Positions 1,100-63,257 of a DNA stretch of 64,000 bases are shown here, piece by piece. The notes under the pieces were generated by a model, which had not been told where the DNA came from, made no database searches, and worked only from the letters and a program-made list of their open reading frames with translations. Both the position numbers and the translations under genes were made by a program. Position 1 is the stretch's first letter, and each line of letters opens with the position of its first letter. Origin of the DNA: Patescibacteria group bacterium (GTDB lineage Bacteria; Patescibacteriota; Patescibacteriia; UBA10025; JAHIVO01); NCBI GenBank assembly GCA_049325535.1, contig JBMOKY010000001.1, positions 621,942-685,941 on the forward strand. The letters run 5' to 3'.

Positions 1100-3890
1100 T
1101 GACTGCCGCGCTTGGTACGGCTACGGGTACACGAGTCATGATTGAGGCTGGCGGTGCCACGGGCGCGGCGGTCGGCATTTGCGGGGACGCTGACTGGATC
1201 GGAGCAGCCACACGAATGGCCGCAGGTGCCTCGAACTTTTTATTGATGTCTAATGTTGATTTTTCAATAGCCGATGCGCCCAGCGTCCGCAGGTAATACG
1301 TAGTTTTCAGCCCCATTTTCCAGGCAGTCAAGTATATGTCAGATATCATCGATCCTGAATCAGAGCTGGTGAAGATATTGACTGACTGACTTTGATCTAT
1401 CCACTTACCGCGGTATGCGGCATGTTTCACAATCCAGAATGTATCCGTCTCGAAAACCTCCTTATATTTTGCTTTCAGGTCGGCAGGTATCTCAGTAATC
1501 CGCTGAATACTGCCGTCGAAATACTTTATCTTTTCCAGCATTTCTTGACCCCATAAACCGAGCCGTTTCAAATCCTCGACGAGGTAGCGATTAACGACGG
1601 TAAATTCACCACTGACATTTGATTTCACGTACAGATTTTTGTAGATAGGCTCAATCGATGGGAGGCAGCCGGTAATATTCGCGATCGTGGCAGTCGGCGC
1701 GATAGCCAAACAGTTTGAATTGCGCATACCGTGCTCTTTGACGTGTTTGCGAACCGGTTCCCAATCAAGCGCGGCGGTCTGTGACACTCCCGTGACCATG
1801 CCTCGCTCCTCCTCCAGGAGCTTCAGGGTATCAATGGGGAAAAGATTTCTGTCCCATTTGGATCCTGCATACGTCTGATACGTCCCTCGTTCTTTCGCCA
1901 GTTCTGAAGAGCCTAGAATAGCGTAGTACGAGATAAACTCCATAATGTGATCAGCGAGCTCCACTGCTTCATCACTATCAAATGTCATATTTAATTCATA
2001 CAATACGTCCTGGAAGCCCATCACGCCAAGTCCAACCGGACGATGCTTGAAATTTGAGTGTTTCGCCTCTTTGGTCGGATAAAAATTCAAATCAATGACA
2101 TTGTCCAGCATGCGCATCGCTACCCGCACCGTCTGCCGCATCTGATCCTTATCCAGTTCCCCACTGACGATGTGCCGCGGTAAATTAATTGATCCAAGAT
2201 TACATACGGCCGTTTCCTCCTTTGACGTATTGAGGGTAATTTCAGTACACAGGTTTGAGCTATGCACCACGCCGACATGATCCTGAGGTGAACGAACATT
2301 ACAGGGATCCTTAAAAGTGATCCATGGGTGACCAGTTTCAAACATCATGGTGATGATTTTTCGCCACAGTTTGATTGCCGGCATCCGTTTGAAGAGGCGT
2401 ATTTCACCCGCATCCGCTTTGCGTTCATACTCAATATACCGGCGCTCAAATTCCCGGCCATAGACATGGTGTAAATCAGGCGTTTCATCAGTAGAAAAAA
2501 GCGTCCATTGTTCATTATTCAGCACTCGTTTCATGAATAAATCCGGTATCCAGTTTGCGGTATTGATGTCGTGAGTACGGCGTCGTTCATCACCTGTATT
2601 TTTTCGTAATTCAAGAAATGACTCGATATCATAGTGCCACGTCTCGAGATAGACGCACGTAGCCCCACGACGCTTACCGCTTCGGTTGATGGCTGCGGTG
2701 GTCGAATCGACAATCTTTAAAAACGGTATGACACCCTGGCTGCCTACGTTCGTCGACTTTATCAGCGAACCGGTACCGCGAATGTTTGTCCAATCATTAC
2801 CGAGCCCTCCTGACCACTTCGAAAGCTGTGCATTATCACCAATGCATTTGAAAATGTGATCAAGGTCATCTTCAACTGTCGTCAAATAACATGAACTCAT
2901 CTGTGGATGATGGGTACCCGCGTGGAACAAAGTCGGGGTTGATGGAACGTACAGCATTTGAGATATTATTTCGTAAAACTCGGTGGCTCGTTTTTCCTTT
3001 TCCAACTCATTCAGCGACAGCCCCATGGCGATGCGCATCCAAAAATACTGAGGAGTTTCTAAAATTTGCTGTTCATGCGTGCGAACAAAATAGCGATCAT
3101 ATAGCGTCTGGGCGCCCAGATACATGAATAAATTATCACGCTCAGGCTTGATGGCAGCTTGTAATATTTCCATGTCAAAATTGAGTAACCGCGGGTCATA
3201 ACGACCGGCAGCTACCCCTTCATTTATTTTTTTTGCCAATGTGGTGCGATAGACTGACTCAAAATGTGGATCAGAAATATCCGTCCCGAGTACTTCGGTA
3301 TACAAATCATTAAACAAAAAACGCGCAGCTAACGATGAGTATCCCGGATCTCGTTCGATGCGCCCCTTGATGGCCATCAGCACCGCTTTATTGATCTCTT
3401 TAGTGGTGATTCCGTCATGCACGTTTGCCAGCGACTCTTCCACGATCTCATGTATTGCCTCCCGATTGAGATGACCATTACATTTTAACACCGCGGTTTC
3501 TATCTGCCTGATATCAAAATCAGCCACACTACCATCGCGCTTTCGCACCTTAAGCTGGCGGGCTTTGGCCCGGTCGTACAGCTCTTTACGAAGCTGTTCT
3601 CGCGCCTGTTCTCGTTCCCGACGGTATATAATATATGCCTTTGAAACGTCAAAATAACCCCGCTCAGCTATTTTCCGCTCAACGATGTCCTGAATATCCT
3701 CGACGCCCGGCACCCGATCTCCATATCGGGTTTCCAGTAGACTAATGACGTCATCAGTTATAGAAATTATTATCTCATCTGTATATTCCGTTTCCGTAGC
3801 CGTAAATGCCTTCCGAATAGCTGATTCAATACGCGACCGATCAAAAGGCACAATTGTACCGACCCGCTTTTTTACCTGTGCTATTGCCAT
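1071..3890 (-). CDS. nrdA: ribonucleotide reductase class Ia large subunit (R1/NrdA)
   Basis: N-terminal ATP-cone (VKKRVGTIVPFDRSRIESAIRKA); catalytic-core motifs including NLCTEI; C-terminal redox Cys pair ECEACQ after a Pro/Ala-rich tail; 939 aa. Confidence 0.9.
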   Translation of the reverse strand: MAIAQVKKRVGTIVPFDRSRIESAIRKAFTATETEYTDEIIISITDDVISLLETRYGDRVPGVEDIQDIVERKIAERGYFDVSKAYIIYRREREQAREQLRKELYDRAKARQLKVRKRDGSVADFDIRQIETAVLKCNGHLNREAIHEIVEESLANVHDGITTKEINKAVLMAIKGRIERDPGYSSLAARFLFNDLYTEVLGTDISDPHFESVYRTTLAKKINEGVAAGRYDPRLLNFDMEILQAAIKPERDNLFMYLGAQTLYDRYFVRTHEQQILETPQYFWMRIAMGLSLNELEKEKRATEFYEIISQMLYVPSTPTLFHAGTHHPQMSSCYLTTVEDDLDHIFKCIGDNAQLSKWSGGLGNDWTNIRGTGSLIKSTNVGSQGVIPFLKIVDSTTAAINRSGKRRGATCVYLETWHYDIESFLELRKNTGDERRRTHDINTANWIPDLFMKRVLNNEQWTLFSTDETPDLHHVYGREFERRYIEYERKADAGEIRLFKRMPAIKLWRKIITMMFETGHPWITFKDPCNVRSPQDHVGVVHSSNLCTEITLNTSKEETAVCNLGSINLPRHIVSGELDKDQMRQTVRVAMRMLDNVIDLNFYPTKEAKHSNFKHRPVGLGVMGFQDVLYELNMTFDSDEAVELADHIMEFISYYAILGSSELAKERGTYQTYAGSKWDRNLFPIDTLKLLEEERGMVTGVSQTAALDWEPVRKHVKEHGMRNSNCLAIAPTATIANITGCLPSIEPIYKNLYVKSNVSGEFTVVNRYLVEDLKRLGLWGQEMLEKIKYFDGSIQRITEIPADLKAKYKEVFETDTFWIVKHAAYRGKWIDQSQSVNIFTSSDSGSMISDIYLTAWKMGLKTTYYLRTLGASAIEKSTLDINKKFEAPAAIRVAAPIQSASPQMPTAAPVAPPASIMTRVPVAVPSAAVNDEECEACQ

Positions 3891-9878: not shown

Positions 9879-9949
9879 GCGGGTATCGTATAGCGGTAGT
9901 ACGCGACCTTCCCAAGGTTGAAGTACGGGTTCGACTCCCGTTACCCGCT
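9879..9949 (+). tRNA. tRNA-Gly (anticodon CCC)
   Basis: Cloverleaf GCGGGTA/TACCCGC acceptor, anticodon loop UUCCCAA, T-arm ACGGGTTCGACTCCCGT. Confidence 0.85.
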
Positions 9950-9972
9950 TGTCGGGCTTGATTCGACCGTAT

Positions 9973-10048
9973 GCCGGCGTAGCTCAGTTGGTAGAGCAAT
10001 GCTTTCGTAAAGCAGAGGTCGGAGGTTCGACTCCTCTCGCCGGCTCCA
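9973..10048 (+). tRNA. tRNA-Thr (anticodon CGU), CCA encoded
   Basis: GCCGGCG acceptor, D-arm GCTCAGTTGGTAGAGC, anticodon loop UUCGUAA, T-arm GGAGGTTCGACTCCTCT, 3' CCA present. Confidence 0.85.
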
Positions 10049-12982: not shown

Positions 12983-13855
12983 TTATTCGTAAAATTCCAA
13001 AAATATATCTTCAAGCGATGCATGTTCAATTTGCACATCACGAAGGGGAAACCGCTGAAGCAATGCTATCAGCGGATTGATGTCGCCCTTCAGCGTCAGT
13101 TCGATGCCATGGTCAAACTCTCGGGTTATATGAAATCCATTATACTGGAAAGCCTGGCGATCGAAGGGACCATTAAAAAAAGCGGTGACGGTGTACAGTC
13201 GCTTGCCTTTCAGACTGGCGATGCTCTCCGTCGTCACCATCGTGCCGCGTTTGATGACGCCCACCCGACTGCAGACACGCTCCACTTCAGCCAGATTATG
13301 TGACGACATAAATACGGTTGCTCCCCATGATGTAGATTCGGCAATCAGCTGGTACACCTCATTTTGCAGCAGCGGATCAAGCGCATTGGTCGGCTCATCC
13401 ATGATGAGCAGCTTGGGCCGGTGCATGAAAGCCAAAATAATACCGAGTTTCTGAACATTTCCCGATGATAATTGTTTTATTTTGATATCAGGATTGAAAT
13501 CAAACCGTTTCATCAGTTCATCGGCCATGTCGTTTTCCTGATGCATGAACGTACGCGCGAAATCAATATGCATTCGCCCGGTCCACCGCGAGTACAACCG
13601 TACCGAACCGGACAAATAGCCAATCTGTCCCTTGAGAGCCACCGAATCTTGGTGCGCGTCTTTCCCCAACATGGTGATACTACCGCCTGACGGACGGATA
13701 AAATCCATCAAACAGCGGATGGTGGTCGTTTTACCAGCACCGTTGGGCCCGAGAAAACCAAACACCTCTCCTTGTTCCACGCTGAAGGAGATGTCGTTCA
13801 CGGCCCATGTCGAGCCAAAATTTTTCCGCAAATGCGAGACCTGTACGACTGACAT
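12983..13855 (-). CDS. ABC transporter ATP-binding protein; start trimmed to MSVVQV, the track ORF extends spuriously to 14185
   Basis: Walker A GPNGAGKTT, Q-loop, signature LSGNVQKLG, Walker B LLIMDEPTNALD; conserved ABC N-terminus begins MSVVQVSHLRKNFG; the upstream 110 codons are low-complexity and overlap the divergent promoter region. Confidence 0.8.
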   Translation of the reverse strand: MSVVQVSHLRKNFGSTWAVNDISFSVEQGEVFGFLGPNGAGKTTTIRCLMDFIRPSGGSITMLGKDAHQDSVALKGQIGYLSGSVRLYSRWTGRMHIDFARTFMHQENDMADELMKRFDFNPDIKIKQLSSGNVQKLGIILAFMHRPKLLIMDEPTNALDPLLQNEVYQLIAESTSWGATVFMSSHNLAEVERVCSRVGVIKRGTMVTTESIASLKGKRLYTVTAFFNGPFDRQAFQYNGFHITREFDHGIELTLKGDINPLIALLQRFPLRDVQIEHASLEDIFLEFYE

Positions 13856-13946
13856 AGTGCATAAAGTATAGCATTTTTGCTCAAATCTGACCATCACATA
13901 TCCTACATCAACCCCCATATAATAACTAGCAGTACTTCGCGGATAT

Positions 13947-14492
13947 ATGCTATACTTTTTCCAGAATATGACTCCCGAAACAACAGTTCCGCAACCAGCA
14001 CCAAAACCGACAGGAAAAAAGCTCCGCATCGGCTGGTTTTCATTTTCCTGCTGCGAAGATTCTACCGTCGTTTTTACCGAGCTGATGAATGACCGCTGGG
14101 AGCTATGGAAAAAAGTGCTGGACATCCGGCATGCCCGAGTGCTACAAACGCATAATGTACTTGACCAGCTGGATGTAGCCTTCATCGAGGGGGCACTCGC
14201 TTCGCAGGATCACGTCGACCGGGTCAAAGAAATCCGATCCAAATCCACGAAAGTTGTAGCCATCGGCGCCTGCGCCTGCGACGGCGTGCCGTCGGCTCAG
14301 CGAAACGATTTTGATGACGCACGACGCACCGAGATTCAACCGATTTTAGAACACTTTAATTATCTGGAAAAAGTGCAAAAACTATCGGATGTAATAACTG
14401 TCGACGTAAAAATTCCCGGATGCCCGATGAATGAAAAAACATTTCTCACCGCGCTTGATTCATTGCTCAAAGAATTTAACATCGTCACCTAA
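13947..14492 (+). CDS. [NiFe]-hydrogenase small subunit, short proximal-cluster-only form; start may be 13968 (MTPETT)
   Basis: Homology pattern to HoxY/MvhG/NuoB-like small subunits: KLRIGWFSFSCCEDS (first Cys motif, tandem CC), VAFIEGAL, VVAIGACACDGVP, KIPGCPMN; 181 aa; stop overlaps the large-subunit start (TAATG). Confidence 0.75.
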   Translation: MLYFFQNMTPETTVPQPAPKPTGKKLRIGWFSFSCCEDSTVVFTELMNDRWELWKKVLDIRHARVLQTHNVLDQLDVAFIEGALASQDHVDRVKEIRSKSTKVVAIGACACDGVPSAQRNDFDDARRTEIQPILEHFNYLEKVQKLSDVITVDVKIPGCPMNEKTFLTALDSLLKEFNIVT

Positions 14493-15847
14493 TGCATCTC
14501 ATCGACCTCACCCTAAACAAAGAAATTACCAAAGTGGAAGGATCAGCCACGCTGGATGTGCGTATTACCGGGGGTAAGGTTGACCATTGCCGATTCGGTA
14601 TCTCCGAGTACAAACGTTTCTATACTCAGGCTATGCGCGGTAAACCATATCGCGCACTTCCGACGCTTCTTGCCCGTATTTGCGGCACCTGCTCAAATGC
14701 CCATCTCCTAGCCAGTATCGAGGCATGCGAAAAGGCGCTTGGTTTCAAACCATCGGATCAGACGCTGCTGATGAAGAAACTGACTATGTACGGCCTGAAC
14801 ATCCGTGATCACGCGCTGCACCTGTACCTCTTCGCCATGCCGGATATGTATGGCAAAGACTCATTCCTGGAGTTTGATGAAAATAAATCAGACGAGCACC
14901 AAATTCTCCATGACGCTTTTACGATCAAGGCGGCGGGCAACTATTTATCAATCATCATCGCTGGACGATCTGTCCACGCTATCAAACCCCAAATAGGTGG
15001 TTTTGCCGGTATCCCGACGGCCGAAGAAATTACTGAAGCAATACATAAATTAGAAATGGCGCGCCCCGCAGCACTGCGAACGATCGAACGATTCATGAAA
15101 TCGCCTGACCGATTCGACCGCCAGACAAAATTTATGGCTATGGTAGCGAACCCCTTTTCATACAATGAAGGGCACATCGTCAGCGACGACGGTGACTATA
15201 TCGAAGAAAAAGACTACCGGGAGCATCTCGAACACACCATTATCCCCTATTCTCACGCTTCAGGATACAAATTCAAAGGAAGGTCATTCATGGTTGGGGC
15301 GCTGGCTCGCATCAATTTGGCGAAAGACACGCTCCACCTGGCAACTCAAAAAAGTGCCGCGGCCGCACTGGAACTCTTCCCTTCTACAAATATTTTCCAC
15401 AATAACCTAGCCCAAGCAATCGAAATATTACATTGCATCGATCATACTATAGAAATACTTCATACGCATCGATTTGAACGCGAACCACTGGGACAGCCGG
15501 CCCTCGAACGCGGGACCGGCATCGGAGTCGTTGAGGCGCCACGCGGTACACTCTACCACAAAGTGACTATCGGGAGCGATGGTAATGTGGTTGAAGGTGA
15601 GATTGTCGTACCCACCGGTCAAAATCAAATCAATATCGAGCAGGATCTGGCCCGTCGCATCGAGGAGCTGATTCCGACTGACCCGGACGCGGACAAACTG
15701 CAACTGGAACTGGAAAAATTGATACGGGCATATGATCCGTGCATGAGTTGCGCCTCGCACTTTCTTAAAGTCCGTATTGGCGGAGCAACGGTACGAGCTG
15801 GGAAAAAGCTGTTTCAGGATCCAGCTGGGACGGTATCCCAAAAATAA
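14492..15847 (+). CDS. [NiFe]-hydrogenase large (catalytic) subunit
   Basis: N-terminal L1 motif RICGTCSNAH, C-terminal L2 motif DPCMSCASH followed by a 28-aa tail (substrate of a maturation endopeptidase); 451 aa. Confidence 0.9.
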   Translation: MHLIDLTLNKEITKVEGSATLDVRITGGKVDHCRFGISEYKRFYTQAMRGKPYRALPTLLARICGTCSNAHLLASIEACEKALGFKPSDQTLLMKKLTMYGLNIRDHALHLYLFAMPDMYGKDSFLEFDENKSDEHQILHDAFTIKAAGNYLSIIIAGRSVHAIKPQIGGFAGIPTAEEITEAIHKLEMARPAALRTIERFMKSPDRFDRQTKFMAMVANPFSYNEGHIVSDDGDYIEEKDYREHLEHTIIPYSHASGYKFKGRSFMVGALARINLAKDTLHLATQKSAAAALELFPSTNIFHNNLAQAIEILHCIDHTIEILHTHRFEREPLGQPALERGTGIGVVEAPRGTLYHKVTIGSDGNVVEGEIVVPTGQNQINIEQDLARRIEELIPTDPDADKLQLELEKLIRAYDPCMSCASHFLKVRIGGATVRAGKKLFQDPAGTVSQK

Positions 15848-16145
15848 ATAATTCACGAGGTAATTTCCCCAGCTTACGCATAAACTGAAGCTGGGTACCC
15901 AAATCAAAGTCATGCATGGTCACATGCGGGGCATTTTGAAATGCCTCCAGTGATGTAAATACACTGACGAGATCCACGCCCTGCACCGTATCTATGATGT
16001 ACAGCCGCTCCGGCATATCCCATTCATCCAGCGGATCTTGATGGATAAATAAGTGGTGCGGAAATACCTGGGCCAACCGCGGAAGCAGTCGAACCGGCAC
16101 CGCATCCTCAGACAAATCTGGATTACCAAAAACCCATACCTGCAT
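15765..16145 (-). CDS. hydrogenase maturation endopeptidase (HycI/HybD/HoxW family)
   Basis: About 126 aa with VFGNPDLSEDA (GxGN...D/E), IIDTV and MHDFDL (metal-ligand Asp/His positions) and IFGIPS, the arrangement of hydrogenase C-terminal proteases; convergent, 3' end overlaps the large-subunit tail by about 80 nt. Confidence 0.6.
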   Translation of the reverse strand: MQVWVFGNPDLSEDAVPVRLLPRLAQVFPHHLFIHQDPLDEWDMPERLYIIDTVQGVDLVSVFTSLEAFQNAPHVTMHDFDLGTQLQFMRKLGKLPRELFIFGIPSQLDPETAFSQLVPLLRQYGL

Positions 16146-16148
16146 AGG

Positions 16149-16958
16149 TCAGAGCGTTTGATTGGCTAATTGCAAATGTTTTTGGGTGTAGTATTCAAGC
16201 CAGCGCACATTTGCCGGTGTAATGATCTCGCAGGGCATACCCCAATGCATGCTGATCATATCACCCACTGAAAGCTCTTCAAATGTGTGATCATCGTCGA
16301 GCCGCCGTACCACACTGACTGACTCAGTCGGCCCCAAATACAAACGGTGACCATCCACCATGAGCGGCTTGCGATCAACCGTAATTTTTGGCCCGGTAAT
16401 GGATGTCACCGAGCCCCAGCTGATGCGGCACGCGTCCATACTCTCGAGCGTATGTAATATCTCAAAATGTCCCGTGCGTTTATACACATTGAAGACGTGA
16501 AATGAATGGTGCATGCGGGCGCCACGGGGAAGTTTTTCAGTCAGCTCATCAAAACTTTTCGGCTGAATCTTTTTTTTCAAGCCAAGTACGTCGCGTAAAT
16601 GTGAGTAAAACGTATTGGGCGAGATAGTTTCCAGGAGCTGATTACCCAGCCAATACGCCTCCACGACACGTAGGTCAAACGGATCGGCGATGTGATTTGC
16701 TTTAGCGATGGTCTGCAAGTATGGATACAGTGTCCGAAACCCTCCCAGAATTGCATTGAGCCCGGCGTCGGTGGCATTTGCATCGATATATGATCCCAGC
16801 TCCCGCTGCATGTCAGGACCACACATCCTGAGCTTATTTGGTCCAAAGGCATACCGGGCGCACTTGCTGACGCCATCGACACTAGTTGTCAGCACCGACT
16901 GCATTGGATGGGACATGTGAGTGGTTTCGACGTACTTCCCAGAGCAGGAGGAATACAC
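16149..16958 (-). CDS. hypothetical protein co-transcribed with the hydrogenase maturation protease
   Basis: 269-aa ORF 3 nt upstream of the protease on the same strand; no family recognised (contains CARYAFGPNKLRMCGPD); start may be an internal Met because of overlap with the EamA gene. Confidence 0.5.
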   Translation of the reverse strand: MYSSCSGKYVETTHMSHPMQSVLTTSVDGVSKCARYAFGPNKLRMCGPDMQRELGSYIDANATDAGLNAILGGFRTLYPYLQTIAKANHIADPFDLRVVEAYWLGNQLLETISPNTFYSHLRDVLGLKKKIQPKSFDELTEKLPRGARMHHSFHVFNVYKRTGHFEILHTLESMDACRISWGSVTSITGPKITVDRKPLMVDGHRLYLGPTESVSVVRRLDDDHTFEELSVGDMISMHWGMPCEIITPANVRWLEYYTQKHLQLANQTL

Positions 16959-17805
16959 CGAGCAGCATAGCCGCCGCGCTCGTCACCTGGGCGTGCGTCA
17001 TCGTATTATCCAAAAAAAGTTGCGAGAGTATATTGGTGATGAGGGAGGCAGGAACCAGCAGACTCGCTACCAGCGTGGCCGGTGCCCGCTTCAAGGCGCT
17101 GTACCAGGTGGTCACATATCCAAAAAGCAGAACCGCTGAAATAAGTGTCCAAATCCACTGCACGCCAGTGAGCCCTATCAGCATGTGGCCATCACCGCGC
17201 ACCAAAATATAGCCTAGCAATATGATGGAACCGATGACCATCCGAGCAGCAGCAACTGTCATGCTGCTCACCTGTAGCAACACTTTCTTTGCAATGATAT
17301 TTTCCGCCGCCCAAAATAGCGTCGCCCCCAGTATGAGCAATTCGCCAGTGCCCCATCGGAAACTATTGATTCCGCCCAGGGCAAAATTACCAAAAACGAG
17401 CAGCAAGAGAGCACTCGCCTGAAGAGCACCGATGCGTTCGCGCAGCATTGGTACAGCGAGCAATGCCACCCAAATAAATAGTGTCTTATGGATGAGGCTG
17501 GCGCTCAGGGCGCTGGTCATGGTGAGGCCAGTAAAAAACATGGCGAACGGAATGCTGCCGCCGACAATACCAATGGCTATGAGGAGAGCCCACTGCCGAC
17601 GGGACAGGTGCATGAGCTCCTTCATTTTTCGAAATAATACAATCGCACCCACCAAGAGCAGGCCAACTGCGGCATTTTTGAGAAATGTAAATACAACCGG
17701 ATCATTGGCAGCACTGACGCCCACTTTGGCGATGACATTTGAAACCCCGGAAATAATGGCTGTGCCGAGCGCCAGGATGACGGCAATACCGATTTTGTTA
17801 TTCAT
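16882..17805 (-). CDS. EamA/DMT-family transporter
   Basis: Ten TM helices in two 5-TM EamA repeats. Confidence 0.75.
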   Translation of the reverse strand: MNNKIGIAVILALGTAIISGVSNVIAKVGVSAANDPVVFTFLKNAAVGLLLVGAIVLFRKMKELMHLSRRQWALLIAIGIVGGSIPFAMFFTGLTMTSALSASLIHKTLFIWVALLAVPMLRERIGALQASALLLLVFGNFALGGINSFRWGTGELLILGATLFWAAENIIAKKVLLQVSSMTVAAARMVIGSIILLGYILVRGDGHMLIGLTGVQWIWTLISAVLLFGYVTTWYSALKRAPATLVASLLVPASLITNILSQLFLDNTMTHAQVTSAAAMLLGVFLLLWEVRRNHSHVPSNAVGADN

Positions 17806-17871
17806 GGTAAAAATTGTTTATAGGAATAGTGACTGTAGTATACGATGGACAGCGCCATCTGACAATTGCCG

Positions 17872-18471
17872 TCAGGGTTTACGCTGCAATACGCAAAAAA
17901 GTGCCCGCACCGGGGGGTAGCTGCCGAAAAATACTGACTCCTCCAGCGATACAAAAGAAAAAAGCTGCTGATAATATGCCCGGATATCAGCCGGTGCAAA
18001 ACGATGCGGACCGTCACTGCCAGGTTGGAGATGACTGAAACATTTCAGCAACATATACCCTTCCGGCCGAAGCAGCTGATACACCGTGCGAATATACGCT
18101 GTACGGTCAGACGGCGCAAATGTGTGGAATACTCCCCGATCAAGGACATAATCAAACGGGCCAGTCATATCGCTGTGCAGGATATTGTCCACCCGGAAAT
18201 GAACCTCGGTGCCGCGCTCCCGGGCCCTCACCCGAGCCTGCTCGATAGCTGCAGGAGAGACGTCGATACCCACTACCGAAAAGCCCCGCTCAGCCAAAGC
18301 GATTGCCTGGGTGCCAGGTCCGGTACCGATATCCAGCACGCGTTTTGTGTCCCCAGCGATTGCCTGCAGTGCTTGGTCAAAATCAGGGTCGAGATCAGCA
18401 AAAAACCAGGGTAATTTTTCTACCGGCGTTTTTCGGTATACGTCATCCCATTCTGCGGGTGTTCGATCCAT
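17872..18471 (-). CDS. class I SAM-dependent methyltransferase
   Basis: Motif I VLDIGTGPGTQAIALAERG, post-I acidic residue and motif II consistent with the Rossmann methyltransferase fold. Confidence 0.8.
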   Translation of the reverse strand: MDRTPAEWDDVYRKTPVEKLPWFFADLDPDFDQALQAIAGDTKRVLDIGTGPGTQAIALAERGFSVVGIDVSPAAIEQARVRARERGTEVHFRVDNILHSDMTGPFDYVLDRGVFHTFAPSDRTAYIRTVYQLLRPEGYMLLKCFSHLQPGSDGPHRFAPADIRAYYQQLFSFVSLEESVFFGSYPPVRALFCVLQRKP

Positions 18472-18508: not shown

Positions 18509-21500
18509 CTAATGCATAGTGGTCATAAATATTCCACCCTGAAACACCGGCGAATAGGCATAAAATTCTTTACGGATAAAATTGAAATTGGAAATGCTGT
18601 ATATCCGCACTAGCGGACTGCTCTGTGACCTGACGCCAACTAAAATTTCATCAGCACGATCATAATCAATATTCCCCGTGGCGACGCTTACGCCACCGCG
18701 AAATTGTGAAAGAAAAACGATAAATCCAGGATGAATGACACCCATCACCCCATTTTTAGTCCGACCAAATACCCGCACGTGTGGACCGCCAGCGACAGTA
18801 CCAGTTACGATTTCATCCAATCCATCGCCGTTGACATCTCCACAGGCGACGGTGATACCACCACGATAGCCCGGATCATAGGCCATCAAGCCCAGCGTTA
18901 CCGGCCGGAACTCGCGGTTACGGATGCCAAAGATGCGCAATTGGGGCCCGCCGGCCCGAGCCGGACCGGTAACCACCTCATCAATGCCATCGCCCTCAAT
19001 ATCACAGGTAGCCAGCGAAATACCGCCTCTGAACCGTTCGTCGTATGCCCAAAAACTTCTGACCAATGGAACAAACGCGCCCTCTCGGTATCCAAACACC
19101 CGTACCTGCGGTCCGCCGCCGCCCATCGGGCTGACTACGATTTCGCCCTCTCCATTGCCATCAAAATCTCCAACCGCAAGCGATACCCCACCCCGGAACC
19201 CTTCATCAAACGCATAAAACTCATTGAGCAATGAACCATTTCGACGGAAAACGCGTACCAGCGGCGGACTACCCGGCCCAGGAGCGGTGATGATTTCATC
19301 GTGCCCGTCCCCACCGAGATCACCCGCGGCTACCGATATACCGCTCCGCAGAGCACTGTCATATGCGAAAAATTGGCTCACCACCGTGCCATGACGATCA
19401 AACACCCGCACCTGCGGTCCGCCGCCATTGTTTGGCGCGGTGACGATATAGGTATCCACCTGAACCCGGAAACTGACAAGCGCGGCAGATGCGTCAATAT
19501 TTCCGGCAGTGTCCCGTGCCCGGACATACACTGTATGCGCGCCATTTGACAGTGTATGCAGCGTCACGCTAGTCTGCGCGCTCCAGGCTGACCAGGATCC
19601 ACTATCGAGGCGGTATGAGTAGCGTAACTGACTGGTCGGCGTGCTATCATCACTCCCTGTCCACGTGATAGTCACCACGGAGCTCTTCACTGCGGAGCGC
19701 GGGTAGGACACGAGTCGGGTATGTGGCGCCTCGTCAATCGGAACAGTACTCGTACAACTACGCGTGGTGCTCGGACGTTTAGCAATGGTGCCGCAGGCAT
19801 TCGCATCGGTACACGTTCGCGACTGACTACCACTGGCACAGGTGGACCAGCTGCCGCAAGACCATGATTCTGTGCACACCGGAACACTGCACGACTGACT
19901 CAACGCGGGACGGCTGATCATTGTCCCACAGGCATTCGCATCGGTACACGTTCGCGACTGACTACCACTGGCACAGGCGGACCAGCTGCCGCAAGACCAT
20001 GATTCAGTGCAGGAAAGAGTAATAAATGTCGCATCACTACTGGTGGCTAGGTTATCCGAACCATCACGGGACCTGACTCGATAATGATACGTCGTACCCG
20101 GCGTCAAGCCAGACAAAACACGACTATGGGACGTAGTAAGTACACTGTCCAGTCCAGTACTGGAGCCATAGGCGGCGGTGAGACCGTACTCCACTTGTGT
20201 GTCAGCCTGCTCATTCGTCGTCCAGGTGACGGTGGCGACCGCTTGGCCGATCGAGCCGACCGATACGTCGGAAATCACCGGAGCGGTCATATCAACCACA
20301 GCGTCAGTACGCTCTACTGCTCCGAGATCCGGAGCGCTTCCCTGCCAGTGCCGGCATCCGGTTTGATCAGGGTCGACATCATCCGACTGCGGACAATGGT
20401 AGCCGGCGATAATTTCACCTTGGTCAATAGCCGGACTCACTGACTGGAGTTGATAATTATGAGCGGCTTTATTCAGAAATAACGGGTCAGATTCGAAACT
20501 GTCCGCATCCTGGCTTGATGCCGTTTGCCAGGCTCCGAGCGTGGCATAGGTCGTCAGGGCGCTGGCCCGGTTTCCGGCAGTGCGCATGGCAAATGCCGTC
20601 GGACTGCTCGGGTGGTAGAAGAGATTATGGTTTGAAACGGCATTTGAAAATGAATTCCAATACAGTGAGATAAAACGGGTGCCCTGGGGTGAGGTGTAGG
20701 TTGGCACCAGATTTGAAATAATGTTATTTTTCGCCGTCAGATACGCTTCATCAAGATTGCACCCGCCCTGGGCGTCTGCCTCTGTCGTCACATGCAGACC
20801 GGACGTATCGACAATCGTATTATGGTACACCGCATACCGATTGTCCCCGCAGCCGTTAAAAATCGCGTAGCCACTGGCTTTTTGATCGGTTCGTGAAATG
20901 ATATTGAAAAAAATATTACCCTCAATGGTGCCGGCAACTTGTCCAGTGGCAGTCGGCCAACCGAGCCAGATACCTTCACGAGCGTCATGAATGACATTAT
21001 TTTTGACCGTGATGTCGATATCGCCGCGTTTCAGAGCGATCGGCTGGGCGATATTATAAAATTCATTGCCCTCTATCAGACTATCCATGACACCATACCA
21101 CTCGATGCCAGCCCCGAGATGCGCGGCTTCAAATCGCCAATCACCATATGACGGCCCGCGGTCACTGCCCGCGTCATGAATCAGATTATCCTTGATGACG
21201 TACCCAGGAGTATTTGGCAGATACGCCGCACCAGTGGCGCTGCCATTGTAAATTGCCGCGGGATTGCCGAGACAATAGCTGTCCCCAGTAGTAAAGGCGA
21301 TTTCGTTGTTTTCTATGGTGATATCCCCTGGATCGTCCTCGTACGGACTAAATGTCAACGCCCGGCCGTTTGATTGCATCAGAGTCATGTTACTCAATTC
21401 GAAATGGTACACGGACGGATGAGCAGAATATTCGCCAACCCTGACAATCGGACGCTGCGAGCATTCGATCGTGTGACTGGCCGGATTGTCGCTGTCGGGC

Positions 21501-22117
21501 ATCCACACATAGAGGTAATCAGTCAATTCGTCATACCAATATTCCCCCGCCTCATCTAAATCATCGAGTGTATCTTCCTGCACGGTTGGGTCGGCACGCA
21601 ACAACCATAACGAACGGTCGATCCAGCAGTTGGTATTATTAACTGAATAAATGTCGTTGCCGTCATAGCGGCACTGTGTCGGCGCGTCAAATTGGGCTCG
21701 ATATATGCTCCCGGAATAGAGCGACCATGACGCCGGGTCAATTTCGTCGCTGCCTAAAATGATGGTCTGCCCATAGTCCGTGGAATATCCCGAATAGATC
21801 GTCGGCTGCGCAGCATCCACGCCTGCTTTCGGAATTAGTTCTTCGCGATACTCGCCCTTGATCATTACCGTATCCCCCGCGGTATGAGCGGAATTTGCCC
21901 GATCGATGGTGCACCATGGGTGGTCAATATCGTTTTCCCCGGTCGTATAAGCGTCATCACAATCTATGTGCGTATTATCCACGTAATACACATTGCCCGC
22001 CGCTCTCGTCTCTATGGGATCGGCATACGCCAATGTCAACACTGTCAATCCGATGACCACGATTCCCCAGATAAGTATGCACCACTCGCGATATTTAATG
22101 ATACCCTTCATAGGCAA
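18509..22117 (-). CDS. giant secreted/surface protein: right-handed beta-helix, Fn3 domains, tandem Cys-rich repeats and C-terminal FG-GAP beta-propeller
   Basis: Signal/anchor N-terminus; pectate-lyase-like NNxI/GNxF repeats (IENNEIAF, IKDNLIHDAG, IEGNEFYN, VKNNVIHDA); Fn3-like segments; two near-identical 45-aa Cys repeats (CTESWSCGSWSxCASGSQSRTCTDANACG); six to seven FG-GAP repeats (GDLGGDGHDEI, GDFDGNGEGEI, CDIEGDGIDEV, GDVNGDGLDEI with GGPQxRVF). Confidence 0.8.
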   Translation of the reverse strand: MPMKGIIKYREWCILIWGIVVIGLTVLTLAYADPIETRAAGNVYYVDNTHIDCDDAYTTGENDIDHPWCTIDRANSAHTAGDTVMIKGEYREELIPKAGVDAAQPTIYSGYSTDYGQTIILGSDEIDPASWSLYSGSIYRAQFDAPTQCRYDGNDIYSVNNTNCWIDRSLWLLRADPTVQEDTLDDLDEAGEYWYDELTDYLYVWMPDSDNPASHTIECSQRPIVRVGEYSAHPSVYHFELSNMTLMQSNGRALTFSPYEDDPGDITIENNEIAFTTGDSYCLGNPAAIYNGSATGAAYLPNTPGYVIKDNLIHDAGSDRGPSYGDWRFEAAHLGAGIEWYGVMDSLIEGNEFYNIAQPIALKRGDIDITVKNNVIHDAREGIWLGWPTATGQVAGTIEGNIFFNIISRTDQKASGYAIFNGCGDNRYAVYHNTIVDTSGLHVTTEADAQGGCNLDEAYLTAKNNIISNLVPTYTSPQGTRFISLYWNSFSNAVSNHNLFYHPSSPTAFAMRTAGNRASALTTYATLGAWQTASSQDADSFESDPLFLNKAAHNYQLQSVSPAIDQGEIIAGYHCPQSDDVDPDQTGCRHWQGSAPDLGAVERTDAVVDMTAPVISDVSVGSIGQAVATVTWTTNEQADTQVEYGLTAAYGSSTGLDSVLTTSHSRVLSGLTPGTTYHYRVRSRDGSDNLATSSDATFITLSCTESWSCGSWSACASGSQSRTCTDANACGTMISRPALSQSCSVPVCTESWSCGSWSTCASGSQSRTCTDANACGTIAKRPSTTRSCTSTVPIDEAPHTRLVSYPRSAVKSSVVTITWTGSDDSTPTSQLRYSYRLDSGSWSAWSAQTSVTLHTLSNGAHTVYVRARDTAGNIDASAALVSFRVQVDTYIVTAPNNGGGPQVRVFDRHGTVVSQFFAYDSALRSGISVAAGDLGGDGHDEIITAPGPGSPPLVRVFRRNGSLLNEFYAFDEGFRGGVSLAVGDFDGNGEGEIVVSPMGGGGPQVRVFGYREGAFVPLVRSFWAYDERFRGGISLATCDIEGDGIDEVVTGPARAGGPQLRIFGIRNREFRPVTLGLMAYDPGYRGGITVACGDVNGDGLDEIVTGTVAGGPHVRVFGRTKNGVMGVIHPGFIVFLSQFRGGVSVATGNIDYDRADEILVGVRSQSSPLVRIYSISNFNFIRKEFYAYSPVFQGGIFMTTMH
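19793..20062 (-). repeat. intragenic tandem direct repeat, 2 x 135 bp, encoding the Cys-rich 45-aa repeats
   Basis: Copy 1 starts at 19793 and copy 2 at 19928, nearly identical (single-base differences visible, for example caggtgg versus caggcgg). Confidence 0.6.
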
Positions 22118-60658: not shown

Positions 60659-62878
60659 TTATGATAATTTCTTAGCACCGCGTTTTAAGAGCAGCGAATT
60701 TGTCACTACCGATACACTGGAAAAAGCCATGGCTGCGCCAGCGAGCTCGGGTCGGAGTTGCCAGCCAAAAATGGGGAAAAAAATGCCAGCCGCGATGGGA
60801 ATCCCAGCCACGTTATACACCAGTGCCCAAAAAAGATTTTGCACAATCTTACGAAACGTCTTGCGGGACAGTCTAATGCCACGAGCCACATCCCGTAAAT
60901 CATTTTTGACGAGGACTATTTGCCCTGTTTCCAGAGCGACATCGGTACCCGAACCAATGGCAATCCCCAGATCGGCCTGGGCCAGGGCTGGTGCGTCATT
61001 GATGCCATCCCCCACAAAAGCAACGTTCTTCCCGATCGACTGTAATTGCTCGACCTGATAGGATTTCTCATGCGGCAGCACCTCTGCCAGGACGTGCGTG
61101 ATTCCCACCTGGCCAGCGATGGCAGTAGCGGTTTGTGTATTATCTCCGGTAATCATAACTACTTCGATCTTCATTTTTTTGAGTTGAGCCACAGCAGCAG
61201 CTGACGTTTCTTTGACCGTGTCCGCAACTGCGATACACCCCGTCAGTTTTTTATTCTGTGCCAACAGCATGACAGTCTTGCCACCCAGTTCCATTTTCTC
61301 AATATGGGGAGCTAAGCCAGCAATGTCAATTCCTTCATCGATCATTAATGTTTTATTGCCCAGTAGAGTATCGACCCCACCAACGATTCCCCGCACTCCA
61401 TGTCCGGGAATCGCAGCAAAATCGGTGACGTGATACAATGCCATGTTTAGCGCCTCCGCATGCTTGACGATAGCCTCAGCCAATGGATGTTCGGACTGTT
61501 TTTCTATCGATGCCGCCACGGCAATCACCATCTGCTCGTCATTTCCCGGGGTGACACGCACATCGGTGACAGTCGGTTTTCCATTTGTCAGAGTGCCTGT
61601 CTTATCAAATATCACTGTGTCAATTTTCCGCGCTGCCTCGAGCGCCTCGCCACCTTTGATCAAAATACCCCTACTCGCCCCCAACCCAGTACCGGTGATA
61701 ATGGCCGTCGGCGTAGCCAAACCGAGCGCGCACGGACAGGCTATCACCAATACCGCAACAAACGCCATCAGACTCGGGACAAATTGCTGACCAGCCAGGA
61801 AATACCACGAAATAAATGTAATCAACGATATAGCAATAACGGTAGGCACAAAATACGCTGATACCCGATCGGCAAACCGCTGGATAGGCGCTTTTGATGC
61901 TTGCGCCTGTTCTACCAAACGTATGATACCGGATAAAAGAGTATCCTTGCCAACTTTTGTAGCTATATACGTAAACGACCCATGCGTATTGATCGTACCG
62001 CCGATGACGACATCGTTTGGATTTTTTTCGATGGGAATACTTTCACCCGTAACCATAGATTCATCGACTGACGAATGACCTTCCTCAACCGTGCCATCAA
62101 CCGGAATCTTCGCGCCCGGTTTCACCCGGATCACATCTCCTACCTGCACCTGATCCATAGAGATTTCCTGCTCGACGCCATCACGAATAACAATTGCTGT
62201 TTTCGGCGCCAACCCCATCAGTTTTTTTACGGCTTCGTTGGTTTTGCCTTTAGCCCGCGCTTCAAGCCATTTGCCCAGCAGAACAAAAGCAATCAAGATG
62301 CTGCCGATTTCAAAATATACCTCACCCTCGATCAGTCCGACGACTACTACGACCGAATACCCATAGGCAGCCGAGGTGCCCAAGGCAATCAAGCTGTCCA
62401 TATTGGCGGTGCGGGAGCGCAGCGCATCCCATGAGCCACGATAAAATTGCCACCCTGACCAAAATTGGATCGGCGTGGCAAAGAGGAACTGCAGCCAGCC
62501 GCGATACGGTATCATTTCAATTCCCGGGATGATAAGCATGCCCATACTCAAAATCAGCACAGGAATGGCGAGCCCCAAACTTATCCAAAATGTACGACGG
62601 ATTTTTTTTATTTCCGCCTCCTTATCCATGGACTCAGTATTGTGCCCACGATCGAGCACGCTCCCCTGGTAGCCCGCCGCCACTACCGCTTTGATCAATT
62701 GGTCGGTTGTTACCGTGTCTGATGCATACGAGACATGGGCTCGTTCAGTCCCATAATTAACCACCGCCCGTTCGACTCCCGGCACTTTTCGCAAACGACG
62801 CTCAATTAACTGAGCACAGCTGGCGCAGTGCATGCCACCCAGTGAAATAATTTTTTCTTGAGTCATAGGGTTCAGCAT
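60659..62878 (-). CDS. copA: copper-translocating P1B-type ATPase CopA; start trimmed to MLNPMTQ
   Basis: N-terminal HMA (GMHCASC), CPC metal-translocation motif ([10 protein letters not shown]), [15 protein letters not shown]. Confidence 0.9.
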
Positions 62879-62882
62879 ACGA

Positions 62883-63257
62883 TCATTCGTTGACGATAAT
62901 TTTCCCCTGGTACATACCCATATCACAGGTGAAGGATATTTCACCCTTTTCTTTCGGCGTGAAATCGACATCCGTCATAGCGAACGGTTTTAAGTCTTTG
63001 CGGATCCCTAGTCCGTCAAACGTCACAAATCGTGAGCACTCGGCGTCCTCCTGCCGATTGAAATGAATGCGTAATGGCACGCCAGACTGCACCGTAATCT
63101 CATTTGGATCATATGCCCCTTTAACCAATATGGTAATTTCTTGGATGGCACCCTTTATTTCTGCGCGCTCCTGACGACGCTGGAATCTGAGCCAGAGCCA
63201 AAATACCCCGATGACCAGGATTATCAGCAACGTGCCTATCATTTGGCGAGTGTCCAT
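62883..63257 (-). CDS. membrane-anchored cupredoxin_1 domain protein
   Basis: N-terminal TM then [18 protein letters not shown]-terminal cupredoxin_1 signature; 4 nt upstream of copA. Confidence 0.65.

Follow-up and report, generated by a model that had tools for sequence, protein, structure and literature searches.

What do the three genes that face the hydrogenase structural genes of a Patescibacteria genome contribute to the enzyme beside them? We addressed this question in a stretch of 64,000 nt from contig JBMOKY010000001.1 of a Patescibacteria group bacterium (hereafter the window), in which the small- and large-subunit genes of a [NiFe] hydrogenase on the plus strand converge on minus-strand genes encoding an EamA/DMT-family permease, a member of the Pfam family DUF6390, and a 126-aa protein resembling hydrogenase maturation endopeptidases. 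According to our best explanation, to which as a whole we give a probability of roughly 0.6, the locus is the accessory half of a [NiFe]-hydrogenase locus of the Patescibacteria (candidate phyla radiation, CPR), related to group 3b and belonging to the hyd2 clade (an assignment made by features), and its accessory operon would combine a divergent maturation protease with DUF6390 as a HypC-type factor dedicated to the hydrogenase. For comparison, we analyzed 80 related loci from one-per-species genomes, nearly all of them Patescibacteria, which were the closest of at least 588 matches.

Hydrogenase subunits and a candidate maturation protease

The small-subunit gene (13947-14492, plus strand) is an open reading frame (ORF) of 181 aa, truncated to the proximal-cluster module, and its product appears to carry the proximal cluster only. 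It matched Pfam Oxidored_q6 (E 2.9e-21), with homologues aligning from residue ~24, and the top NCBIfam models were delta/gamma subunits of group 3 hydrogenases, every one under its cut-off. Its motifs, including the tandem-Cys FSCCEDS, GACACDG, and IPGCP, are presumably closer to those of NuoB/group 4 small subunits than to those of typical group 3 proteins. The stop codon of this gene shares 1 nt with the ATG of the large-subunit gene (14492-15847, plus strand; 451 aa), whose product matched Pfam NiFeSe_Hases (E 1.4e-27), with the sulfhydrogenase ShyA as its closest NCBIfam model (248 bits against a cut-off of 700). Both Cys motifs, RICGTC and DPCMSCASH, are kept in the large subunit, and homologues with 49-86% identity were found in 58 of the related loci.

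Two clades of CPR hydrogenases, hyd1 and hyd2, were defined by Jaffe et al. 2020 (PMC7304191), with hyd2 having a truncated small subunit (mean 164 aa) and its function being left dependent on "unknown genes." The locus in the window shares with the published hyd2 loci the truncated small subunit and the lack of beta/gamma diaphorase genes on the same strand, together with both Cys motifs of the large subunit, and the gene upstream of the small subunit encodes an ATP-binding cassette (ABC) transporter ATPase on the opposite strand. A further likeness to the published loci is a Pyr_redox_2 protein nearby in some related loci (cluster c8). Within this cluster, a 414-aa oxidoreductase with Pyr_redox_2 and Rubredoxin_C domains adjoins the truncated small-subunit gene in 29 of the 80 loci (e.g., L039:13634-14878) and is absent from the window; we regard it as a candidate electron partner of the two-subunit hyd2 hydrogenase, and it corresponds to "fam013" of PMC7304191.

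Past His423, the large subunit in the window continues for 28 residues (FLKVRIGGATVRAGKKLFQDPAGTVSQK; 15761-15844, plus strand), and this C-terminal extension is the presumed protease substrate. Most homologues carry a tail of 7-9 aa (FLKVxWxx), and a tail of 28 aa was found only in the window and in locus L001, the closest relative. The 3 hyd1-type CPR large subunits that were examined have the His of DPCxxCxxH as their very last residue.

Facing the large-subunit gene is the ORF of the compact HybD/HycI-type endopeptidase (15765-16145, minus strand; 126 aa). The NCBI label for the identical protein is hypothetical, and 118 of 120 homologues had no precomputed Pfam domain. An AlphaFold (AF2) model built from 40 homologues reached a predicted local distance difference test score (pLDDT) of 92.3 and a predicted template modeling score (pTM) of 0.87, and when this model was compared with the PDB by Foldseek, ranks 1-8 were all occupied by hydrogenase maturation endopeptidases or their structural-genomics homologues, including HybD of E. 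coli (1cfz; E 1.2e-5, query-normalized TM-score [TMq] 0.67) and HybD of T. kodakarensis (5ija; TMq 0.69). Residues G7, N8, D14, D37, D52, H78, and D79 were invariant in 3 independent alignments of 34-64 homologues, and the Asp/Asp/His triad and the GN motif remained unchanged in 64 homologues spanning 36-79% identity. The triad matches the positions of the metal-binding residues of HybD/HycI enzymes, which in E. coli HybD we take to be Glu/Asp16, Asp62, and His93. Further, weak matches to the Pfam HycI model, all below threshold, were obtained for 27 of 34 members of the protease family (best E 3.8e-5).

Among loci with at least 5 kb of sequence on each side, the protease gene was present in all 40 hyd2 loci, with large-subunit tails of 7-28 aa, and in none of the 4 hyd1-type loci. 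This comparison, in which the presence of the gene tracks tail-bearing large subunits, is the strongest functional argument for the protease. Compared with the HybD/HycI/HyaD endopeptidases (PF01750; PDB 1cfz, 2kml, 5ija, and 5zby), the 126-aa protein has the same predicted fold and a gene adjoining that of a large subunit with a C-terminal extension. It differs in belonging to a family of only 121-130 aa (vs. ~150-165 aa) that falls below the family cut-offs, and its gene is convergent with that of its substrate, often overlapping it in relatives. The evidence from models and alignments thus supports a real, divergent, and compact maturation protease of the HybD/HycI type, with cleavage of the tail as its predicted activity.

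DUF6390 and its C-terminal domain

Next to the protease gene on the same strand, a 269-aa ORF extends mechanically from a GTG at 16958 (16149-16958, minus strand) and includes CARYAFGPNKLRMCGPD. The initial annotation had found no recognizable family in this ORF and had considered it lineage-specific, and neither statement holds. The ORF matched Pfam DUF6390 (PF19927) at 208.7 bits against a cut-off of 25 (E 1.2e-61; positions 3-240 of the 244 in the profile). This uncharacterized family comprises ~1,345 clusters at 50% identity and occurs in Patescibacteria and Actinobacteria. A literature search for "DUF6390" returned no match. The identical database protein and most homologues have 251 aa, and the true start of the gene is therefore probably the ATG at 16904 (16149-16904, minus strand; 251 aa), so that the overlap with the EamA gene noted earlier does exist and is likely to extend over 23 nt instead of 77 nt.

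An AlphaFold model of DUF6390 (pLDDT 80) combines a helical N-terminal domain (16458-16904, minus strand) with a C-terminal domain (16152-16457, minus strand; residues ~150-251) made up of a beta-barrel, with strands at residues 162-227, and a subsequent helix at 230-247. Across 397 DUF6390 sequences, conservation was 97% for C28, 100% for H133, 95% for H136, 99% for C159, 99% for H220, 99% for W221, and 92% for C225. The near-invariant Cys28 of the N-terminal domain lies in a CGP motif, with His133 and His136 in HHSFHV, while Cys159 and His220 belong to the C-terminal domain, an OB fold resembling HypC/HupF. A Foldseek search of the PDB returned no match for the N-terminal domain and weak OB-fold matches for the remainder, including HypC of T. 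kodakarensis (2z1c_B; target-normalized TM-score 0.59). No relevant match, and none to HypC, was obtained when PDB sequences were searched with the DUF6390 alignment as a profile.

The relationship to HypC emerged from profile comparison. When 249 family members trimmed to the C-terminal domain were compared by hhalign with 5 HypC sequences (4 from annotated or Pfam-labeled genes and 1 CPR sequence retrieved by tblastn), the alignment covered 61 columns at a probability of 93.7-95.0% and E 1.9e-7 to 4e-8, with the best of 20 shuffled-column controls reaching E 0.029. In this register, Cys159 falls on HypC Cys2, His220 on HypC His51, and GDxVxxHW on GDWVLVHVG. The whole DUF6390 alignment against the single E. 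coli HypC gave a local match only (E 0.0016), and neither DUF6390 domain gave an hhalign signal against HypA, HypB, HypD, HypE, HypF, HycH, or HycI. HypC Cys2 and His51, with HypD Cys41, have been implicated in coordination of the Fe(CN)2CO unit (PMC12134894).

We therefore read the C-terminal third of DUF6390 as a HypC/HupF-type domain homologous to HypC, and we call it HypC-like. It shares with the HypC/HybG/HupF chaperones (PF01455; PDB 2z1c) an OB fold followed by a helix, the alignment of the Cys and His residues, and an encoding in hyp and hydrogenase clusters. In contrast to these chaperones, its Cys is internal, the domain stands behind a novel helical domain of ~150 aa with invariant Cys and His residues of its own, and a separate gene for canonical HypC often adjoins its own, so that DUF6390 is not a simple substitute for HypC. 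Judged from these alignments, DUF6390 is probably a HypC-derived module to which the N-terminal domain adds Cys and His ligands, together forming a metal- or cofactor-binding site.

Gene neighborhoods in CPR genomes and other phyla

The gene order EamA, DUF6390, protease was conserved among the 80 loci, with EamA directly upstream of DUF6390 in 53 of them; of the 63 loci that bear a protease gene, 44 have it directly downstream. The small- and large-subunit genes were convergent to this unit in all 54 scorable pairs. Where at least 5 kb was available on each side, a [NiFe] large subunit lay within 10 kb of DUF6390 in 44 of 46 loci, and homologues widespread in genomes without hydrogenases were not seen in the sample. 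These neighborhoods, along with the HypC-like domain, strongly support the proposal of the initial annotation that the protein is a candidate hydrogenase accessory or maturation factor. A short HypC adjoins the EamA-DUF6390 pair in hyd1-type loci, where the pair is located within or alongside a classical 3b operon of 4 subunits. A tblastn search with Hyp queries from E. coli, Actinobacteria, and CPR bacteria, which covered the window and ~1.3 Mb of the 80 loci and not whole genomes, found no HypB, HypD, HypE, or HypF.

A gene for the high-affinity nickel permease NicO was inserted in 3 CPR hyd2 clusters. It lies between the protease and the large subunit in L038 (8446-9396) and L040 and immediately past the protease in L073, a locus lacking any hydrogenase within 10 kb; EamA was also present in 2 of these 3 loci. 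Genes resembling a cysteine desulfurase (SufS-like) and SufU/IscU were recognized by sequence reading within 10 kb of the hydrogenase and DUF6390 genes in ~17 loci (clusters c14 and c15; L016, L020, L021, L029, L031, L033, and others). A contig labeled Dehalococcoidales (L075:6471-10720) encodes a large subunit with a 24-aa tail, a canonical HycI (E 2.8e-16), HypA, HypC, EamA, and DUF6390, which shows that the EamA-DUF6390 pair occurs beside canonical maturation genes; the taxonomic label of this contig may be a binning error.

Beyond the CPR, DUF6390 was found at the ends of hydrogenase and hyp operons and in fusion with DNA-binding domains. In an actinobacterial locus (L091), it immediately follows hypC and closes a hydrogenase operon, and in a Nocardioidaceae metagenome-assembled genome (L093), a stand-alone DUF6390 ends the order hypF-hypC'-SIS-hypE-hypC-hypD. 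The hyp operon of L093 also encodes a 253-aa protein (2283-3044) that has an unrelated N-terminal domain and, in its last 40 residues, a match to HypC (hhalign E 4e-6). We rejected this protein, labeled "HupF_HypC (weak)," as a DUF6390 paralogue (hmmsearch E 0.067), and it represents a second, distinct internal HypC-like domain. Among cultured bacteria, Prescottella equi, Rhodococcus, and Aeromicrobium have DUF6390 homologues, and 2 members of the family have been named "hydrogenase maturation factor" by the Joint Genome Institute (JGI).

A search of family representatives identified fusions of DUF6390 with EamA (L010/P0121) and with helix-turn-helix (HTH) DNA-binding domains of the PadR, XRE, GntR, ArsR, and MarR families, the HTH domain being located at either end of the protein. 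All of the gene contexts of these fusions relate to hydrogenase or to metal supply. In Pseudonocardiales, DUF6390-MarR directly follows hypC and ends an operon of small subunit, large subunit, HycI, and NifU-Rieske genes. XRE-DUF6390 also follows hypC, between 2 ABC systems of the SBP_bac_5 (Nik/Opp) type and near HycI and a large subunit, and ArsR-DUF6390 is flanked by NicO and an MFS gene, in the vicinity of HycI, HypA, and a hydrogenase. PadR-DUF6390 precedes an SBP_bac_5 ABC system, and GntR-DUF6390, with a hydrogenase small subunit at a distance of 8 kb, precedes an Fe-type ABC system. On the basis of these sequence comparisons, DUF6390 is best called a widespread and consistently hydrogenase-linked variant of the HypC kind. 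The CPR study plotted same-strand neighbors only, described a context family with hypC homology near both hydrogenase clades, and does not contain the word "maturation" (PMC7304191); it differs from our analysis in drawing no link from DUF6390 to actinobacterial hyp operons or HTH fusions.

Other features of the window are recorded here. It has a strong strand bias, with 59 of its 68 long ORFs on the minus strand; the few features of the plus strand include the hydrogenase structural genes and a tRNA-Gly/tRNA-Thr pair (9879-10048). The 400-aa mechanical ORF at 12983-14185 (minus strand) is over-extended; its ABC-transporter ATPase domain begins near 13840, and the apparent overlap with the small-subunit gene is therefore an artifact of ORF calling. 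A protein of 1,202 aa (18509-22117, minus strand) combines beta-helix, fn3/purple-acid-phosphatase-N-like, and FG-GAP repeat regions and probably belongs to the large surface proteins of the CPR cell. A 770-aa ORF (60659-62971, minus strand) groups with ORFs of CPR loci that, on reading of a representative sequence, resemble heavy-metal P-type ATPases (cluster c20). The methyltransferase gene at 17872-18471 was considered as a component of the system and rejected, as it recurs in 1 of the 80 loci.

Proposed mechanism, rival explanations, and meaning

According to the mechanism that we propose, the 3 tightly packed minus-strand genes facing the plus-strand small- and large-subunit genes would form one transcription unit, starting with the EamA gene (16882-17805, minus strand; Pfam EamA E 6.3e-33). 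DUF6390 would bind a metal or a metal/Fe cofactor between its 2 domains and, like HypC, may dock on the large-subunit precursor or on assembly partners, serving as a carrier or a checkpoint ahead of proteolysis. The protease, via Asp14, Asp52, and His78, would then recognize the metal-loaded large subunit and remove the short tail past DPCxxCxxH. In other phyla, the DUF6390 module fused to DNA-binding domains would report the state of the metal or cofactor to transcription. The permease may also play a part.

Co-transcription of EamA, DUF6390, and the protease is plausible from the sequence. The TGA stop of the DUF6390 ORF is separated from the protease ATG by CCT, confirming the 3-nt gap noted in the initial annotation, the EamA and DUF6390 genes overlap by 23 nt, and a match to the sigma-70-like promoter consensus (17837-17865, minus strand; TTGTCA, 17 nt, TATACT; 10 of 12 positions) in the gap upstream of EamA is a candidate operon promoter. 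This match is to the consensus only, and such sites were not clearly more frequent in the region than in shuffled sequence. The 3' ends of the protease and large-subunit genes overlap on opposite strands by 83 nt (15765-15847), close to the ~80 nt first described, and the overlap does encode the tail presumed to be cleaved, spanning 27 of its 28 codons and the stop codon. We consider it improbable that this overlap is a functional antisense device coupling the structural and maturation transcripts, a possible but unsupported suggestion of the initial annotation. Such a device would fit the finding that this is the sole overlapping pair among the 6 convergent ORF pairs in the window (the remaining 5 are spaced by 38-758 nt), the recurrence of 3' overlaps in 22 of 54 related loci, often of 20 or 26 nt, and the lack of any terminator-like site between the 2 stop codons in our scan. 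However, the other 32 of the 54 loci have no overlap, their genes being spaced by 1 nt to several kb, and where an overlap occurs its length varies from 8 to 83 nt, so that it is not a conserved requirement; moreover, the long overlap in the window exists because the tail has grown in a lineage-specific manner from 7-9 to 28 aa, a change common only to L001. The arrangement is most simply explained by a tight convergent junction of ancestral origin and by read-through of the tail, specific to this lineage, into sequence antisense to the C-terminal helix of the protease.

Several findings weigh against the explanation of the locus as a hyd2 accessory operon with a divergent protease and a HypC-type factor. 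The 126-aa protein scored 14.4 bits against a cut-off of 23 with Pfam HycI (PF01750; E 0.035) and 20.9 bits against a cut-off of 47.45 with TIGR00072 (E 2.9e-4), so that the HycI/HybD-like assignment made at first sight, while supported by the fold, the invariant triad, and the tracking of tailed large subunits, missed both family cut-offs. In an hhalign comparison of the protease family with the single E. coli HycI, D14, D52, and H78 fell opposite the GDDG, IVDA, and TTH motifs at E 0.44, which is not significant, and a sequence profile search of the PDB with the protease alignment found neither HybD nor HycI. As regards DUF6390, the Foldseek E values are weak, with generic OB folds ranking equal to HypC; Pfam HupF_HypC (PF01455) gave no match to the protein at E <= 0.1; the essential Cys of HypC is N-terminal, whereas Cys159 is preceded by ~158 residues; a short bona fide HypC lies beside DUF6390 in 9 CPR loci and in Actinobacteria; and the fusion to 5 HTH families favors a sensing over a carrier role. 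The neighborhood statistics from the 80 loci are also biased toward the CPR.

The missed cut-offs could also be accommodated if the 126-aa protein were a degenerate, noncatalytic protease relic or an unrelated small alpha/beta protein, the hyd2 tail remaining uncleaved. It is 25-40 residues shorter than HybD and HycI (162 and 156 aa), and the short FLKVxWxx tail has a conserved sequence, an unusual property in a peptide that is to be discarded. We judge this very improbable, since invariance of the triad and the GN motif in 64 homologues implies an active site under selection, the match in fold is to HybD/HycI specifically, and the presence of the gene strictly tracks tail-bearing large subunits. 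A rival to which we give substantial weight, although we consider it less likely than not, is that DUF6390 is mainly a sensor of metal, probably nickel, or of cofactor state that controls supply and is not a chaperone; its HTH-fused forms would be one-component regulators of nickel uptake and hydrogenase genes, and the CPR form would gate the EamA permease or receive cargo from it. NikR and the ArsR-family NmtR are metal-sensing one-component regulators of nickel supply, and the HTH-fused DUF6390 proteins resemble them in adjoining NicO, Nik-type transporters, and hydrogenase genes, as expected of a nickel-responsive regulator. They differ in that the DUF6390 domain is unrelated to the C-terminal domain of NikR, and the protein in the window has no DNA-binding domain. 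A sensor would be consistent with the independent fusions to 5 HTH families at either protein end, with the MFS, SBP_bac_5, and Fe-type ABC transporters that also adjoin these regulators, with the position of EamA in 53 of 80 loci and its fusion in L010/P0121, with the NicO insertions in 3 CPR clusters, and with the invariant Cys/His set. On the other side, the DUF6390 gene that ends the hypFCEDC operon of L093 has no transporter or HTH domain nearby, the homology to HypC points to binding of Fe(CN)2CO or of the large subunit, and EamA/DMT proteins are not known as established nickel transporters. The two roles, sensor and chaperone, are mutually compatible and do not exclude each other.

Assembly of [NiFe] hydrogenases has been described as requiring 6 Hyp proteins and a protease (PMC12134894), and clusters of cultured Actinobacteria still list "hypothetical proteins" (PMC13332983). 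Our literature searches on hydrogenase maturation in the CPR found no paper treating the topic. New in this analysis are the assignment of the hyd2 protease, the link between tail and protease, the domain-level homology of DUF6390 to HypC with its residue correspondence, and the contexts of the family across phyla in hyp operons and HTH fusions. With the protease assignment, hyd2 hydrogenases would gain their missing protease, and DUF6390 emerges as one uncharacterized family that travels with hydrogenase and hyp genes in 2 very distant phyla and that has repeatedly come to form the half that does not bind DNA in transcription factors encoded beside nickel transporters. In its widest form, which we put forward only tentatively and consider rather unlikely to hold in every part, DUF6390 would be a widespread and previously unrecognized contributor to [NiFe]-hydrogenase biogenesis. 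It would act as a self-contained metal-cofactor module derived from HypC, the N-terminal domain providing the second ligand set, a part played for HypC by HypD; in the CPR, together with EamA, it could allow a minimal hydrogenase to mature with reduced Hyp machinery, and in Actinobacteria and other phyla, fused to HTH domains, it would form a new class of sensor through which cofactor or nickel status acts on transcription. The presence of DUF6390 in cultured Actinobacteria makes this hypothesis directly testable.

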